Source of the DNA: an uncultured delta proteobacterium
GTDB lineage: Bacteria; Desulfobacterota; Deferrimicrobia; Deferrimicrobiales; Deferrimicrobiaceae
DNA length: 64,000 bases
NCBI GenBank assembly: GCA_963770975.1
Contig: CAVYRM010000001.1
Coordinates: 127,792 to 191,791 of the forward strand
Direction of reading: 5' to 3'
Under the pieces are notes generated by a model. The model saw only the letters and a list, made by a program, of their open reading frames with translations. It ran no database searches and was not told where the DNA came from. Positions 24,077-30,140 of this stretch are shown here, piece after piece. The translations under genes and the position numbers were made by a program. The first letter of the stretch is position 1; the number at the start of each line of letters is the position of its first letter.

Positions 24077-24108
24077 TTCGGACCGACGACCCGATTCCAT
24101 ATGCATTC

Positions 24109-24140
24109 GACAACGGCCCTTCGGGGCCGTTGTCGTTTTC
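24109..24140 (+). terminator. rho-independent terminator after rplQ
   Basis: GACAACGGCCC-TTCG-GGGCCGTTGTC is a perfect GC-rich hairpin followed by GTTTTC. Confidence 0.7.
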
Positions 24141-24164: not shown

Positions 24165-24212
24165 TTGACGCTCCCCGGGGCCCGGGATACTATGAAAATG
24201 AATTTCATAATC
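24165..24212 (+). promoter_or_regulatory. fur/feoB promoter with an overlapping Fur box
   Basis: TTGACG at 24165-24170, a 17-nt spacer, then TACTAT at 24188-24193. GAAAATGAATTTCATAATC at 24194-24212 matches the GATAATGATAATCATTATC consensus at 14 of 19 positions. Confidence 0.55.
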
Positions 24213-24216
24213 ATAA

Positions 24217-24684
24217 TTGGAGCGGCCCCCCGCCTTGAAGCATCTTCTCGGACGCATCGATCGTGAAATCCTGGACGCCGGCGGGAAAAGGAGCCGGAGC
24301 CGGTCCGTGGTGATGGAGCGTTTCTTCGGATCGCGCGAACACGTCACCGTGGAGGAGCTCGCCCGCTCCGTGAGGAAGAAGCACCCGGGGGTGGGGACCG
24401 TGACGGTTTACCGCACCCTGAAACTCCTGGAACGGATGGGTTACGCGAAGGAACTGGATTTCGGCGAGGGCGTGAAACGGTACGAAAGCAACCTCGCGTC
24501 GCATCATGACCACCTCGTCTGCAGGAAGTGCGGCACGGTCATCGAGTTCGAGAACGCGAACATCGAAAAGCTCCAGGATTCCGTCACGCGGCAGCACGGC
24601 TTCCACCCCACGGCCCACCGCCTGGAAATCTACGGGTTCTGCCGCCGATGCACCCCCGGGGAAGGCACGGGGGGCGCCGGATGA
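24217..24684 (+). CDS. fur: Fur-family transcriptional regulator (probable ferric uptake regulator)
   Basis: HHDHLVCRKCGTVIEF and the C-terminal CxxC match the Fur family. It sits in front of feoB. Confidence 0.85.
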   Translation: MERPPALKHLLGRIDREILDAGGKRSRSRSVVMERFFGSREHVTVEELARSVRKKHPGVGTVTVYRTLKLLERMGYAKELDFGEGVKRYESNLASHHDHLVCRKCGTVIEFENANIEKLQDSVTRQHGFHPTAHRLEIYGFCRRCTPGEGTGGAG

Positions 24685-26651
24685 AAACCGCCTCGATCGT
24701 GGAAACCGCGCAGAACCCGGTGATCCTCGTCGGCAATCCGAACGTCGGGAAAAGCGTCGTTTTCGGCGCTCTCACGGGCAGGTACGTCAACGTCTCGAAT
24801 TACCCGGGCACGACCGTCGAGATCTCCAGGGGAGAGGCGCGCGATCGCGGCACGACCTACGAGGTGATCGACACCCCCGGCGTCTATTCGCTCCTGCCCA
24901 TGTCGGAGGACGAGCAGGTCACCCGGGATATCCTGATGCGGGAGCCCGGCGCGAAGGTCCTGCAGGTGTGCGACGCCAAGAACATGCGCCGATCGCTGAT
25001 GATCACCGTTCAACTCTCCGAGATGGGGGTCCCGCTCGTCCTGGCGGTGAACATGGCCGACGAGGCGAGGGAATGCGGGGTGATGCCGCGCCTGGAATCC
25101 CTCGAGGGCCGGCTGGGGGTACCCGCGGTCCCCACCGTGGCGGTACGGAAAAAGGGTACGGACCGTCTCCTCCCGCTCCTCGTGCATCCATCGCCCTCCA
25201 CCATCCGGATCGACTACGGGGAGAAGATCGAGGCGGCCATCGTGCGGATGGAAAGGCTGCTTCCGGAGGAAACCCCGGTCGGCAAGAGGGCGCTCGCGGT
25301 CATGCTGCTTTGCGGGGACGACTCCCTCGGACCCTGGATATCGGAGAACGTACCCGTCGCGCGCATCCGGGAAATGAACGACGTGAGGAACCGGCTGGTC
25401 GAGGAATCGGGGGAGGAGATCGTCTTCCGCGTGAACCAGGCCCGGCTCTACTGGATCGACCAGTTGCTCGAGGAACTGGGCGTGGAATCTTCCGCTCCCG
25501 CCGGGAGGAGCATCTCCACGGCGTTCGGGCGATACGCGATGGACCCGGTCTACGGGGTCCCGATCCTCGTCGGCGTTCTCTTCCTGGCCTACGAATTCGT
25601 GGGGGTGTTCGGCGCGGGGTTCCTCGTGGACCTGCTGCAGAAATCGTTCTTCGAGAAGTGGATCATTCCGTCCATCGCCGCGCTGATCGACCGGTTCCTG
25701 CCCTCGGCATTCCTGCGGGACTTCCTGGTGGGCCCCTACGGGATGATCTCCATGGCCCTTTCCTACGCGGTCGCGATCGTCCTGCCGATCGTCGGGACGT
25801 TCTTCTTCGGGTTCGGGATCCTGGAGGATTCCGGGTACCTTCCGAGGCTCGCGGTGATGGTGGACCGCCTGTTCAAGAAGATCGGGTGCAACGGCAAGGC
25901 GGTCCTCCCGATGATCCTGGGCCTGGGTTGCGACACGATGGCGACGTTGACCACGAGGATCCTCGAAACGCGGAAGGAACGGATGATCGTCACGCTGCTG
26001 CTCGCCCTGGGCGTCCCGTGCTCCGCGCAGCTGGGCGTGATCCTCGGCATGCTCTCCGACGTGGGGCCGGCGGCGACCATCACATGGCTCGCCTTGCTGG
26101 TGGGCATCATCCTGCTGGTCGGGTTCCTCGCCTCGAAAATCATCCCCGGGGACTCCTCGGACTTCATCCTCGAGATCCCGCCCATCCGGTGGCCGAAGGC
26201 GGGAAACCTTGCCGTCAAGACGATGGCGCGCATCGAGTGGTACCTGAGGGAAGCGGTCCCGCTGTTCCTCCTCGGCACGTTGATCCTGTTCGCAGCGGAC
26301 CGGCTCGGATGGCTGTCGTGGTTGCAGAAGGCGGGCGAGCCGTTGATCGTCCGGGTCCTCGATCTCCCGCCGAAGGCGATGGAGGCGTTCCTGATCGGGT
26401 TCCTCCGGCGGGACTACGGGGCCGCGGGGCTCTTCAGCATGGCGAAGGCCGGGATGCTTTCCCACCTCCAGGTGGTGGTGAGCCTGATCACCATCACGCT
26501 CTTCATTCCCTGCCTTGCGAATCTCCTCGTGATCGTGAAGGAGCACGGGGGGAAGGTCGCGGCAGGGATGGCGTTGTTCATCTTTCCCTTCGCGCTGCTG
26601 GTCGGGGCCGCCGTAAACCTCGTCGCGCGCTGGGCGGGGATCGTTTTCTGA
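24681..26651 (+). CDS. feoB: ferrous iron transporter FeoB
   Basis: N-terminal G-domain VILVGNPNVGKS..DTPG. Polytopic C-terminal half. 656 aa. Its ATG overlaps the fur stop (ATGA). Confidence 0.93.
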   Translation: MKTASIVETAQNPVILVGNPNVGKSVVFGALTGRYVNVSNYPGTTVEISRGEARDRGTTYEVIDTPGVYSLLPMSEDEQVTRDILMREPGAKVLQVCDAKNMRRSLMITVQLSEMGVPLVLAVNMADEARECGVMPRLESLEGRLGVPAVPTVAVRKKGTDRLLPLLVHPSPSTIRIDYGEKIEAAIVRMERLLPEETPVGKRALAVMLLCGDDSLGPWISENVPVARIREMNDVRNRLVEESGEEIVFRVNQARLYWIDQLLEELGVESSAPAGRSISTAFGRYAMDPVYGVPILVGVLFLAYEFVGVFGAGFLVDLLQKSFFEKWIIPSIAALIDRFLPSAFLRDFLVGPYGMISMALSYAVAIVLPIVGTFFFGFGILEDSGYLPRLAVMVDRLFKKIGCNGKAVLPMILGLGCDTMATLTTRILETRKERMIVTLLLALGVPCSAQLGVILGMLSDVGPAATITWLALLVGIILLVGFLASKIIPGDSSDFILEIPPIRWPKAGNLAVKTMARIEWYLREAVPLFLLGTLILFAADRLGWLSWLQKAGEPLIVRVLDLPPKAMEAFLIGFLRRDYGAAGLFSMAKAGMLSHLQVVVSLITITLFIPCLANLLVIVKEHGGKVAAGMALFIFPFALLVGAAVNLVARWAGIVF

Positions 26652-26854
26652 TGGCGGGAGAAACCGTGAAGATCCCGTGCCCGCTTTGCGGGTTCGAAAT
26701 CGATCCGTCGGACCGGGCCTGCCGGTCGGGATGCCCCATGGGAAAGGGATGCACCCTTGTCTGTTGCCCCAGATGTCGCTACTCTTTCCCCATGCCGGAG
26801 TCGAAGACCGTGAATTTCCTCAAGACCCTTCTCTCGAAAGGAAGCCGGAGATGA
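26651..26854 (+). CDS. small Cys-rich protein (67 aa, 8 Cys), a putative metal-binding Feo accessory of unknown function
   Basis: MAGETVKIPCPLCGFEIDPSDRACRSGCPMGKGCTLVCCPRCRYSF.... Its ATG overlaps the feoB stop (TGATG) and its stop overlaps the next gene's ATG (ATGA). It is the tail of track ORF 24506..26854. Confidence 0.55.
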   Translation: MAGETVKIPCPLCGFEIDPSDRACRSGCPMGKGCTLVCCPRCRYSFPMPESKTVNFLKTLLSKGSRR

Positions 26855-27498
26855 CCGAGCAAGGACAGGACGAGATCCTCGAACTCCTGTGGACGCTTCG
26901 GGAGGAGGGGAGGGCGACCCGGTCCGAGCTGCTTCGTTCGACGACGGAAGCAAGCCCCGAGCAGCTGCTCGAGGAGATCCACGCCGGAGGCCTTGTCGAC
27001 GCGTCCCGGGACGAGATCCTTCTCACGAAGAGCGGCGAGGACCGGGCGCGGGGGATCATCCGGCGCCACCGGCTTGCCGAGGTGCTCCTGCAGAACCTGT
27101 TCGAACTGGACAACACCCAGCTGGAACACAGCGCCTGCCAGTTCGAGCACATCCTTTCCGAGCCCGTGGTGGAGAGCGTCTGCACGTTCCTCGGGCACCC
27201 CCCCGTCTGCCCCCACGGGCGGTCCATCCCGAGGGGGGAGTGCTGCAACCGGATCCGCACCGAGATCCGCCCCCTGGTCATGCGGCTGACCGAGGCTTCC
27301 CTCGGGACGACGGTCCGGATCGTGTTCATGACCCCCAAGTCGAAAAAACGGCTCGAGAAGCTTTCCGCCCTCGGGATCGTGCCCGGAAGCCGGCTGAGGA
27401 TCCTCCAACGGACCCCGTCGTACGTCCTCCAGATCGGCCAGACCACCGTGGCCGTCGACCGGGATATCACCGATGAGATCTACGTCAAGGTATCGTAG
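26851..27498 (+). CDS. DtxR/IdeR-family metal-dependent repressor with a C-terminal FeoA/SH3-like domain
   Basis: RRHRLAEVLL...HSACQFEHILSEP is the DtxR metal-site signature. The C-terminal VRIVFMTPKSKKRLEKLSALGIVPGSRLRILQ is FeoA-like. Preferred start is MTEQGQDEILELL at 26851. Confidence 0.8.
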   Translation: MTEQGQDEILELLWTLREEGRATRSELLRSTTEASPEQLLEEIHAGGLVDASRDEILLTKSGEDRARGIIRRHRLAEVLLQNLFELDNTQLEHSACQFEHILSEPVVESVCTFLGHPPVCPHGRSIPRGECCNRIRTEIRPLVMRLTEASLGTTVRIVFMTPKSKKRLEKLSALGIVPGSRLRILQRTPSYVLQIGQTTVAVDRDITDEIYVKVS

Positions 27499-28768
27499 GG
27501 CCGTCGCGCTCTTCCTTTCCGTCTCCCTCGTCGCGGGGACCTTCACGCCGGCTCTCGCCGGTGATCCCGTCGGGACGAGGCAGCCCGCGCTCCTGCTGAA
27601 GTACGCCGCGCCGGACCTCCCGGATGCGGAGGCCCGCAAGGTGCTCGATCCCCTGGCCGGGATCCTCGGAAAGGAGCTCCAGGTCCGCTGGCTTCCCGTT
27701 CCGTCGGAAACCCCCCGGGATGGCCGGGCTCCCGGCGTTCCCCCCGTTCCCGACGACACCGCCCTGCGGCGGATCGCGGGAAAACTCACCAGGGCATCCC
27801 GGTCGATGGACAAGCTGGAGACTTCGGAAGCCGCAAGGGCGCTGGAGGAGGCCGAGAGGGAGTGCCGGTCGTACCGGTTCACGGATGCGACCAGGCCGTT
27901 TCTCGCCGAAATCTTCCTCCGCCGGTCGATCCTGCGCTTCTGGAAGGGAAAAACCTCCGAAGCGGAGGCGTTGGCTGCCCGCGCGCGGGCGATGCGCCCC
28001 GGGTTCTCCCCGGACCCTGCGATGTATTCCCCGCAATTCCTGTCCCTCTGGGAGGCCGCGAAGCGACGCCCCGTGCCGGAGGCGGAACTCCTGGTCCAGT
28101 CCCTCCCTTCCGGCGCGGAAATCTTCATCGACGGGGAGCGGCAGGGGGTCACCCCCTCGCGCGTCAGGATACGGAAGTACGCCCCGCTGCGGGTCCGGGT
28201 CTCCCACCCCGGTTACCGGGACGAGGAAAGGACCGGCCAGTGGCTTCCAGGGGATACGGAGATCCTCGAATTCACCCTGTCGGGCGACCGGGTGGCCCGC
28301 CTCGGAGACCTCCTGTCGCGGGCACCCCGCGAGAAAGGCGCCGGAACCGGCCCTCTGCTGGAAGAGCTCTCCAAGGCGGCGGGAACGGGTCGAGTGGCCG
28401 TATTGACGCTGGAAAAGGATGGAAACGGGGGAGGGTGCCTCGCGCGCCTGTACGGCCATCGGACGGGCGGACGGGACCTGGCCCTTCTCGGGGAGAAGGT
28501 CGTGGCCGGGGGGGAGGAAGCCGCGGAGGTATCCGGGTCCTGGGCGGCGAACGCGCTTGCAGCCGACGGATGGCCGCGTGCGGAACGCGTCGAAAGTCCG
28601 TGGTACTATAGTGCCTGGTTTTGGCTGGGGGTAGCATCGGTTGCGGGATTGGCCGTCGCCCTGGGGGGGGGAGGCGGCGGAGACGGAGGAGGAGGGACCG
28701 GCGGAGGGGGCACCGGCGGAGGAGGAACCGGCGGCGCCACGGACGGTACCGTCGCAGTGAATTTCTAA
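27473..28768 (+). CDS. secreted/membrane PEGA-domain protein with a C-terminal TM helix and a Gly-rich (GGGGT)n tail
   Basis: Signal peptide VALFLSVSLVAGTFTPALAG. PEGA-like SLPSGAEIFIDGERQGVTPSRVRIRKYAPLRVRVSHPGY. TM helix WFWLGVASVAGLAVAL, then GGGGGGDGGGGTGGGGTGGGGTGGATDG. Confidence 0.6.
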   Translation: MRSTSRYRRAVALFLSVSLVAGTFTPALAGDPVGTRQPALLLKYAAPDLPDAEARKVLDPLAGILGKELQVRWLPVPSETPRDGRAPGVPPVPDDTALRRIAGKLTRASRSMDKLETSEAARALEEAERECRSYRFTDATRPFLAEIFLRRSILRFWKGKTSEAEALAARARAMRPGFSPDPAMYSPQFLSLWEAAKRRPVPEAELLVQSLPSGAEIFIDGERQGVTPSRVRIRKYAPLRVRVSHPGYRDEERTGQWLPGDTEILEFTLSGDRVARLGDLLSRAPREKGAGTGPLLEELSKAAGTGRVAVLTLEKDGNGGGCLARLYGHRTGGRDLALLGEKVVAGGEEAAEVSGSWAANALAADGWPRAERVESPWYYSAWFWLGVASVAGLAVALGGGGGGDGGGGTGGGGTGGGGTGGATDGTVAVNF

Positions 28769-28799
28769 CCTCGGGAAAAGGCAGGGGCCGCATCCCCCC

Positions 28800-30140
28800 A
28801 TGAGCTGGATCCTCACCATTCTCCTGTTGCTCGTCTCCGTGGAAACCTTCGCGGCGGACGCCGAAACCGTGATCCGGGGTCTCGGGAACACGAAGATCAT
28901 CCGTTCGAACGAACCTCCCCACACGATCCTAAACGAAGCCTGCGTCGCGTGCCATCCCAAGGAAAAATTCGAGTACTGGCTTCTCATCTACAAGGGAAAG
29001 GCGCCTTCGCTGACCGTTGACCGGCCGGAAGGCAGCGATCAACGGGCCGGCACCGAAGCAGCCCCCGTTCGCGGGAAGACCAACCGGTACAATTCCCACG
29101 ACTCCCTCGCCTGCAATCTGTGCCACTTGCAGAACCCCACGGAAGCGGCCCCCAAGTTCATCGTGGACGTCGCCGACCTGTGCCGGCTGTGCCATCCGGG
29201 CACGGGGATGCACCACCTCCCCGATCCCGCCGGCCTGGCGCTGGTGAAGAAGGCGATCCTGGGCAGGAAACTGCCCGGAAGGGACGGGGAGCCGCTGTGC
29301 ACGACGTGTCACAAGACCCACGAATCCACCTACACGATGCGCCAGGTATACGCCGAGACGCTCTGGGAAGGGAAGGTTCCCAACCCCCACGGGAGCAGGA
29401 TGCTCTGTTTCGCCTGCCACACAGGACGGATCAAGGAAGGACAGGAAATCCGCCTCACGACGGGAAGGGACAACATCAAGCTCTGCAACGCGTGCCACAC
29501 GAAGCCGGGGGTGAAAAAGAGCCCGCACATCGTGGACGCGACCTCCTCCGAGGGGACGTGGAGGATGGATTACCTCGGGTATCCCCTCAACCAGGGGAAG
29601 CTCGTCTGCTCCACCTGCCACGACGAGGTCTCCCACGGGAAACGGGACCCCGCGAACCCGAAATTCCTTCGGGGCGGCCCGTACGCGGACCCGGACAAGT
29701 TCTGCTATCGTTGTCACCTGGAGGACAAGGATGTCTACAACAACCCCCACCGCCAGGTCGACGGGTTCGGGAGAATCCGGGCGGAGTCCTGCCTCTTCTG
29801 CCACCGCAACAACCCGGATGCGGGAAAGGACGTGCCGGCGAACCGCGAGATGGTGGCCGAGGACCGGGTGGTGTGCTCGAACTGCCACCAGCTGCGCGCG
29901 CACCCCGGCGTCGATCACCTGATTCTCCTGAAGGGGGAGAAGGCCGCCCGGAAGGAAGAGTACGAACGGAGACAGCAGATTCGCCTGCCCCTTGCCGGAG
30001 ATGGGAAGATCACGTGCAGCACATGCCACAACCCTCACGCGAAGGGGGTTCTGAAGGGGGAGAGCGGCGTGGGCGGCGGCTCGAAATGGCGCGTGCCGGA
30101 CTTCAGGGAGGTCTGCGCGCCTTGCCACGGTAGATACTGA
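28800..30140 (+). CDS. dodecaheme c-type cytochrome, periplasmic or outer
   Basis: Signal peptide MSWILTILLLLVSVETFAA. 12 CxxCH motifs. Confidence 0.88.
   Translation: MSWILTILLLLVSVETFAADAETVIRGLGNTKIIRSNEPPHTILNEACVACHPKEKFEYWLLIYKGKAPSLTVDRPEGSDQRAGTEAAPVRGKTNRYNSHDSLACNLCHLQNPTEAAPKFIVDVADLCRLCHPGTGMHHLPDPAGLALVKKAILGRKLPGRDGEPLCTTCHKTHESTYTMRQVYAETLWEGKVPNPHGSRMLCFACHTGRIKEGQEIRLTTGRDNIKLCNACHTKPGVKKSPHIVDATSSEGTWRMDYLGYPLNQGKLVCSTCHDEVSHGKRDPANPKFLRGGPYADPDKFCYRCHLEDKDVYNNPHRQVDGFGRIRAESCLFCHRNNPDAGKDVPANREMVAEDRVVCSNCHQLRAHPGVDHLILLKGEKAARKEEYERRQQIRLPLAGDGKITCSTCHNPHAKGVLKGESGVGGGSKWRVPDFREVCAPCHGRY

Follow-up and report, generated by a model that had tools for sequence, protein, structure and literature searches.

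Between the ferrous iron transporter gene feoB and the gene of a DtxR-type regulator, a 64,000-nucleotide stretch of the genome of an uncultured delta proteobacterium (Deferrimicrobiaceae; GenBank assembly GCA_963770975.1, contig CAVYRM010000001.1, positions 127,792 to 191,791 of the forward strand; here called the window, position 1 being its first letter) carries a small cysteine-rich gene concealed within a long spurious open reading frame (ORF). Comparative sequence analysis indicates that the small ORF is a genuine gene under purifying selection, and profile searches place its product in a large and widespread family that is unnamed and has no Pfam or NCBIfam model. With moderate confidence, we read this protein of about 7 kDa as soluble, cytoplasmic, and metal-binding (7 to 8 Cys), and as an accessory subunit dedicated to a separate type of Feo system, whose genes run fur-feoB-X-(DtxR::FeoA), X being the small gene. 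The control of FeoB by FeoA and FeoC is a long-standing open question, and most bacteria have no FeoC; the family described here recurs as natural fusions to FeoA and thus provides a concrete and testable hypothesis, that of a Cys-rich module acting through the FeoA domain.

The small gene and its conservation

26651..26854, + strand: Cys-rich small gene, 67 amino acids from ATG 26651 or 62 from GTG 26666, recognized from sequence, homologs, synteny, and the ratio of nonsynonymous to synonymous substitution rates (dN/dS)
26656..26668, + strand: Shine-Dalgarno-like GGGAG, 5-nucleotide (nt) spacer, and GTG (GTG 26666), a start arrangement kept in most relatives
24506..26854, + strand: ORF of 782 amino acids containing the small gene as its in-frame tail, an artifact

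Read from the ATG at 26651-26653, the product is MAGETVKIPCPLCGFEIDPSDRACRSGCPMGKGCTLVCCPRCRYSFPMPESKTVNFLKTLLSKGSRR, with 67 residues and 8 Cys at positions 10, 13, 24, 28, 34, 38, 39, and 42. The A of this ATG is the last base of the feoB stop codon (TGA 26649-26651, giving TGATG), and the stop of the small gene (TGA 26852-26854) falls within the ATG at 26851-26853 of the DtxR-type gene (giving ATGA). The initial annotation had described just such an ORF, overlapping both neighbors and hidden as the tail of the out-of-frame ORF 24506..26854, and both points hold. The 782-residue ORF is not conserved, its frame being closed in many relatives by stops within 45 nt upstream of the small gene, and must be regarded as an out-of-frame artifact of GC-rich DNA. 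A 638-residue antisense ORF at 24630-26546 is an artifact of the same type.

That GC-rich DNA yields many long spurious ORFs, the 782-residue one included, is what could be said for reading the small ORF, too, as no gene at all but a chance open frame between feoB and the regulator gene. The comparative data leave this reading practically no probability. A scan of GTDB species genomes, seeded with the close alignment and biased to Deferrimicrobiaceae, returned 48 loci, mostly from Candidatus Deferrimicrobiaceae and Deferrimicrobium metagenome-assembled genomes (MAGs). The small frame is unbroken in all 48 of these species-level genomes, its Cys codons are all kept, and the order fur-feoB-small gene-dtxR/feoA is held at every one of the loci having flanks. 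In a selection test on 45 sequences sharing an ungapped core of 58 codons (44 of the 48 loci, the related locus L001, and the window), the median pairwise dN/dS was 0.18 at a synonymous divergence (dS) of about 1; column entropy was 0.51, 0.30, and 0.99 for codon positions 1, 2, and 3, the third position thus being the most variable, and the 2 other frames of the same core contained 83 and 32 stops. Moreover, a search with the 67-residue sequence, as the initial annotation had proposed, found 21 close homologs of 62 to 77 amino acids among 5.8 billion proteins, none of them annotated, and beyond these there are hundreds of homologs at 35-50% identity; functional fusions to FeoA exist as well. 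The intact frames, the low dN/dS, the third-position variation, and the stops in the other frames refute the chance reading. Where the annotation had foreseen that an absence of conservation downstream of feoB and synonymous-like drift in the frame would speak against the gene, the relatives show the reverse on both counts. Three loci (L008, L039, and L041) are 72-79% identical to Deferrimicrobiaceae genes and come from MAGs labeled Actinomycetota, Gemmatimonadota, and Limnocylindria; these labels are probably binning or labeling errors rather than true cross-phylum occurrence.

The annotation had taken the ATG and TGA overlaps as its key evidence for translation. The gene is real, but the overlapping start is not the conserved feature. 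Across 50 loci, a GTG, TTG, or ATG stands exactly 4 codons before the first Cys in 37, nearly always preceded by a GGGG, GGAG, or GGGA element, and the start that overlaps the feoB stop is the only one available in 11. The window holds both, ATG 26651 and GGGAG-N5-GTG 26666, and therefore the protein has either 67 or 62 residues, with tight coupling to feoB either way. The 5 extra N-terminal residues encoded from ATG 26651 are not conserved among homologs. On these comparative grounds, the conserved start is the GTG or TTG 4 codons before the first Cys, and not the overlapping ATG.

Scans of the 67-residue protein against Pfam and NCBIfam (hmmscan, E≤1 for Pfam) gave no match, including to FeoA, FeoC, or PF12669, in keeping with the earlier statement that it is neither FeoA nor the winged-helix FeoC. 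The protein has an isoelectric point of 9.1 and a C-terminal basic amphipathic helix at about residues 52-63. No signal-like N-terminus was seen, and the highest 19-residue Kyte-Doolittle mean is 0.41, so that the claimed lack of a transmembrane segment also stands. Because of these features, and because the same domain is found fused to cytoplasmic FeoA, we take the small protein to be soluble and cytoplasmic.

A family linked to feoB and FeoA

A profile search of 1.84 billion cluster representatives (clusters at 50% identity) recovered 816 clusters at E≤1e-3, of which 146 reach E≤1e-10; the proteins are mostly 55-90 amino acids long. A second indexed search gave 775 matches. Where the sources name these proteins at all, they are called “hypothetical protein,” given an obvious mis-call, or, in the fused forms, called “FeoA.” Compiled from 287 sequences, the family signature reads C-x2-C-x8-14-C-x2-3-C-P-x5-7-C-x3-[C/x]-C-P-x-C-x-Y, after which come a conserved E-S-K/R motif and then a basic amphipathic helix. 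Seven of the Cys are universal or nearly so, Cys38 is present in about 78% of members, and P11, L12, P29, P40, and Y44 are nearly invariant. The window protein has both this signature and the position 3′ of feoB. The bacteria with a family member include some in culture, such as Anaeromyxobacter dehalogenans and Anaeromyxobacter sp. K (AnaeK_2298, WP_012526319.1), which makes the role of the family directly testable. When 150 members were compared with known domain families, sub-threshold matches to zinc families were scattered among them, with UPF0547 in 79 and the Rad50 hook in 78, and with smaller numbers for Zn_ribbon_3/4 and DZR; the zinc-ribbon matches as a whole (UPF0547, Zn_ribbon_1/3/4, and DZR) span 18 to 79 of the 150. 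Neither FeoC (PF09012) nor PF12669 is among the 25 families most often matched by these members. Searches of the open-access literature on FeoA and FeoB in connection with zinc ribbons, zinc fingers, cysteine-rich proteins, or DtxR, and on GSU1380-1382, turned up no account of this family.

In every genomic context inspected, the family gene lies directly 3′ of feoB, and the recurrence in relatives that the initial annotation had suggested looking for is thus a general one. It includes members at 53% and 45% identity (L002 and L003), Anaeromyxobacter terrae (L055), MAGs of Gemmatimonadota and Thermodesulfobacteriota (L050 and L051) and of Fidelibacterota (L058), and 3 further loci (L054, L056, and L057). 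The gene that follows usually encodes, as in the window, a DtxR-type protein that ends in a FeoA domain, and a 4-nt ATGA overlap with it is found in most Deferrimicrobiaceae loci and in Anaeromyxobacter.

The strongest evidence for the Feo link, in our view, is gene fusion. Among the best 150 matches, 17 are long (at least 145 amino acids), and 16 of these begin with the Cys domain and end with a FeoA domain, the FeoA part scoring 28-52 bits against a Pfam cut-off of 23; about 1 in 10 of the best-scoring members is thus fused N-terminally to FeoA. At L052 and L053, such a fusion gene is the next one after feoB, and the vicinity contains neither dtxR nor a further feoA; at L061 a stand-alone feoA follows the Cys domain. 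Hence, whether the FeoA domain is fused, encoded by a separate feoA, or carried by a DtxR-type protein, the Cys domain stands between FeoB and a FeoA-type domain in all 3 arrangements. Together, synteny across phyla and repeated fusion to FeoA support the candidate role as a Feo accessory that had been put forward. One 107-residue protein (P0039) carries the Cys domain and then a FeoB-like C-terminal transmembrane segment (…TLFIPCIANFF…); a chimeric assembly is possible.

Relation to known systems and predicted role

One close parallel is FeoC (PF09012; E. coli YhgG/FeoC and K. pneumoniae FeoC), which is likewise small, Cys-rich, cytoplasmic, and encoded immediately 3′ of feoB. In E. coli, the feoC start even overlaps the feoB stop by 1 nt (L060 position 2929), as in the window, and the FeoC loop C-x2-C-P-E-G-K-A-C resembles the C-x2-3-C-P-x-x-K-G-C of the family. 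In FeoC, this Cys motif carries a [4Fe-4S] cluster, and full function depends on it (PMC8749426). The differences are nonetheless considerable: the window protein has no match to the PF09012 profile; its low-confidence models, with a predicted local distance difference test (pLDDT) score of 60-66, give 2 beta-hairpins and 1 C-terminal helix rather than a three-helix winged helix; the family has 7 to 8 conserved Cys, whereas FeoC has 4 or fewer; it is often fused to FeoA; and it occurs in Deferrimicrobia, Myxococcota, Fidelibacterota, and others, in contrast to FeoC in Gammaproteobacteria.

Other lineages have different small Cys-rich ORFs after feoB, among them PF12669 with the spacing C-x3-5-C-x2-3-C-x6-8-C, and a 2022 survey of Feo systems left their relatedness, and even their translation, unresolved (PMC8749426). 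Like the present family, the membrane peptide PF12669 is small and Cys-rich and is encoded after feoB in lineages without feoC; it is sometimes fused to FeoB, and its spacing overlaps the inner C-x2-3-C-x5-7-C of the family. Unlike PF12669, the window protein has no match to that hidden Markov model and no transmembrane helix, is about twice as long as the motif-bearing region, and has 2 extra CPxC knuckles and a conserved amphipathic helix; moreover, the fusions in this family are to FeoA and not mainly to FeoB. Nor does the 67-residue protein match the SH3-like domain of FeoA (PF04023), which in the 16 fused relatives is a separate C-terminal domain. Hence, as judged by these profiles and features, the window protein is neither FeoC nor FeoA, nor is it the PF12669 membrane peptide; its family, new and unnamed, falls under the established idea of “FeoC-like” Cys-rich accessories to Feo. 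The survey, which asked for the relations among such elements to be established, contains in its text no occurrence of “Deltaproteobacteria,” the label on many of the genomes with the family (PMC8749426).

The best matches of the window protein in both sequence and fold, though not significant, are rubredoxin and zinc-ribbon knuckle proteins such as HVO_2753. The likeness consists of 2 CPxC(G) knuckles (CPLCG and CPRCRY in the window) about 25 residues apart and flanked by short beta-strands. Rubredoxins in the PDB match weakly, at E of 0.0075-0.25 and mostly over 1 knuckle, and the window protein has no Pfam rubredoxin match. In contrast to these proteins, a loop with 3 to 4 Cys is inserted between the knuckles, no match reaches any family threshold, and the family is strictly linked to feoB and feoA in genomes. 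Searches of PDB sequences with the single sequence and with the profile matched C2H2 arrays and rubredoxins at their CPxCG knuckles and nothing else; homology to either was rejected, since the scores are due to the CPxCG repeats and, where the matches have His ligands, the window protein has Cys or no counterpart.

A further parallel is found in Geobacter, where the feoB-1 gene adjacent to fur (Gmet_2444, equivalent to GSU1380) has no feoA and belongs to a separate FeoB clade (PMC2700814). The fur-feoB-1 locus of the Geobacteraceae is thus the same type of module as in the window, with feoB beside fur and no feoA gene. With ideR presumably 2 genes downstream, this locus may contain a family member as well.

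Taken as a FeoC-like accessory, the small protein could work as follows. The 2 CPxC knuckles (Cys10/13 and Cys39/42) would form a rubredoxin- or zinc-ribbon-like Cys4 site, and the loop between them (C24-x3-C28-P-x5-C34, with Cys38 where present) would be a second site comparable to the [4Fe-4S] loop of FeoC, C-x2-C-P-x-G-K-x-C. The conserved basic amphipathic C-terminal helix might be what docks the protein, with the membrane, the FeoA/SH3 domain, or FeoB on its cytoplasmic face as possible targets. The protein would then be a small subunit, responsive to metal, Fe-S, or redox state, that together with the FeoA domain tunes the activity or stability of FeoB, and in the operon of the window it might, in addition, link the DtxR-type regulator to the Fe(II) taken up. 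Metal binding, Fe-S or redox sensing, and the partner contacts are all predictions from sequence.

Several observations weigh against this reading. Two AlphaFold runs, with 85 and 150 sequences, gave mean pLDDT values of 60.2 and 65.8, too low to fix the fold or to pair the Cys residues. The first model has strands at 8-9 and 16-17 around the first knuckle and at 36-38 and 45-47 around the second, with short helices at 19-22 and 53-61; the second has the same strands and a helix at 54-62. With either model, Foldseek found nothing in the PDB better than E=0.46, and its top matches at or above that value were tandem zinc fingers, RING/IBR domains, and the zinc-finger micro-protein HVO_2753 of Haloferax. 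The FeoC loop of E. coli, SCKSCPEGKAC, aligns to family positions 24-34 (consensus crksCplakgC) with only 3.0-3.6 bits, between the 95th (2.4) and 99th (4.6) percentiles of 5000 shuffles; the resemblance may be due to convergence or chance and is to be taken as a lead rather than as evidence of homology. Cys-rich knuckle proteins, moreover, very often bind structural zinc alone. Finally, the 17th long match, P0115, is a fusion of the FeoB C-terminus with the Cys domain (L061, 577-1514); it may be an assembly or deletion artifact rather than a genuine FeoB fusion, and we give it little weight because its source is a single metagenomic contig of 2.5 kb with a broken feoB that lacks the last helix.

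As for the grouping of the Cys residues, 2 topologies suggest themselves. In a nested arrangement, C10/13/39/42 may be the site of ribbon or rubredoxin type, and C24/28/34(/38) a second site inserted into it; in a sequential one, C10/13/24/28 may form one site and C34/38/39/42 the other. A co-loss analysis fits both, because Cys38 is the only Cys ever missing in the family.

One rival is that the protein is a purely structural zinc-ribbon adaptor, with 1 or 2 structural zinc ions, that bridges FeoB and the FeoA-domain protein and senses neither iron, oxygen, nor redox state. The scattered sub-threshold matches to zinc ribbons and zinc knuckles (UPF0547, Rad50 hook, Zn_ribbon_3/4, and DZR) and the C2H2 arrays and ribbon proteins among the PDB profile matches are what such an adaptor would give, and fusion to FeoA suits it equally well. 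Still, the conserved seventh Cys means that a Cys3(+X) site is kept where Cys38 is lost, which is more typical of a functional or cluster site than of a second site for structural zinc, and the C-x2-3-C-P-x-G-K-x-C loop is weakly like the cluster loop of FeoC; we consider the adaptor a doubtful explanation, if one to be taken seriously. It is unlikely that the protein instead receives Fe(II) in the cytoplasm as an acceptor or chaperone, using a rubredoxin-like site, Fe(Cys)4 or Cys3, to take it from FeoB and deliver it, for example, to the DtxR-type sensor. This would accord with the rubredoxin-like knuckles (CPLCG ... CPxCxY) and their weak rubredoxin matches, with the position of the small gene between the genes of a transporter and an iron-sensing regulator and its translational coupling to both, and with a host lineage predicted to be an iron-respiring anaerobe of Fe(II)-rich settings (PMC9386147). 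At L052, however, there is no DtxR gene near the fusion to plain FeoA, and delivery to DtxR is therefore not the general role. Nor is any Feo system known to require an iron chaperone, which counts against this rival. The protein might, lastly, be a co-regulator of the DtxR-like repressor, an anti-repressor or co-sensor on its SH3/FeoA domain with no direct action on FeoB. The conserved ATGA overlap with the DtxR-like gene points this way, as does the fact that the fusion partner elsewhere, FeoA/SH3, is the same kind of domain as the DtxR C-terminus; but the family stands beside feoB even without a DtxR gene, and since the invariant neighbor is feoB and not the regulator, we think this very improbable.

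Going beyond the accessory-subunit reading, we tentatively suggest that the family is a third class of FeoC-like Feo subunit, in which a zinc-ribbon scaffold would carry a FeoC-type Fe-S or Fe(II) sensing loop and act via FeoA/SH3, and which in fur-feoB-X-dtxR would physically link the transporter to the iron-sensing repressor. If so, transported Fe(II), or oxygen, would feed back directly on both FeoB activity and transcription.

The iron module and its surroundings

24165..24218, + strand: sigma-70-like promoter match (TTGACG-17-TACTAT) and Fur-box-like stretch just 5′ of fur, the only promoter-like match in the region
24217..24684, + strand: fur, the first gene of the module (PF01475, 6.3e-35), its stop overlapping the feoB ATG (ATGA 24681-24684)
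24681..26651, + strand: feoB, a 656-residue Fe(II) transporter with a GTPase domain (TIGR00437, 392.7 bits; FeoB_N, FeoB_Cyto, Gate, FeoB_C)
26851..27498, + strand: gene of a DtxR/IdeR-type regulator of 215 residues (Fe_dep_repr_C, 4.5e-23; FeoA, 7.3e-13)

All 3 junctions of the module overlap (ATGA 24681-24684, TGATG 26649-26653, and ATGA 26851-26854), and the 4 genes are therefore translationally coupled. From this arrangement, we take the small gene to be co-transcribed and translationally coupled with feoB and the FeoA-domain gene, so that fur-feoB-X-dtxR is an iron module of 4 genes, with translational coupling throughout, in anaerobes predicted to respire iron. There is no stand-alone feoA in the operon, and the C-terminal domain of the DtxR-type protein is its sole FeoA/SH3-type domain. 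The same protein aligns to DtxR/IdeR structures from residue 10, yet the Pfam matches of this protein and of its counterparts in all the related loci are confined to the dimerization/metal-binding and FeoA domains and do not include the DtxR helix-turn-helix domain; its winged helix must thus be divergent.

Overlapping the promoter match is an AT-rich stretch (24194-24218, GAAAATGAATTTCATAATCATAATT) with GATAAT-like hexamers that, compared by eye with the textbook consensus, looks like a Fur box. If it is a true one, the whole fur-feoB-X-dtxR operon would be iron-repressed and autoregulated. Further upstream, directly after rplQ, a perfect 12-bp inverted repeat at 24108-24135 (CGACAACGGCCC/GGGCCGTTGTCG, with a 4-nt loop) is followed by TTTT; it is probably the terminator of the ribosomal-protein/rpoA operon, dividing it from the iron module.

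Downstream of the module, the region 27473-30140 encodes 2 proteins: one has a PEGA domain and a Gly-rich (GGGGT)n tail, and the other is a multiheme c-type cytochrome rich in CxxCH motifs. In the relative L001 (6874-10545), genes for a PEGA-domain protein and a multiheme cytochrome are followed by ExbB/ExbD genes, which suggests a larger iron-related gene neighborhood in this lineage.

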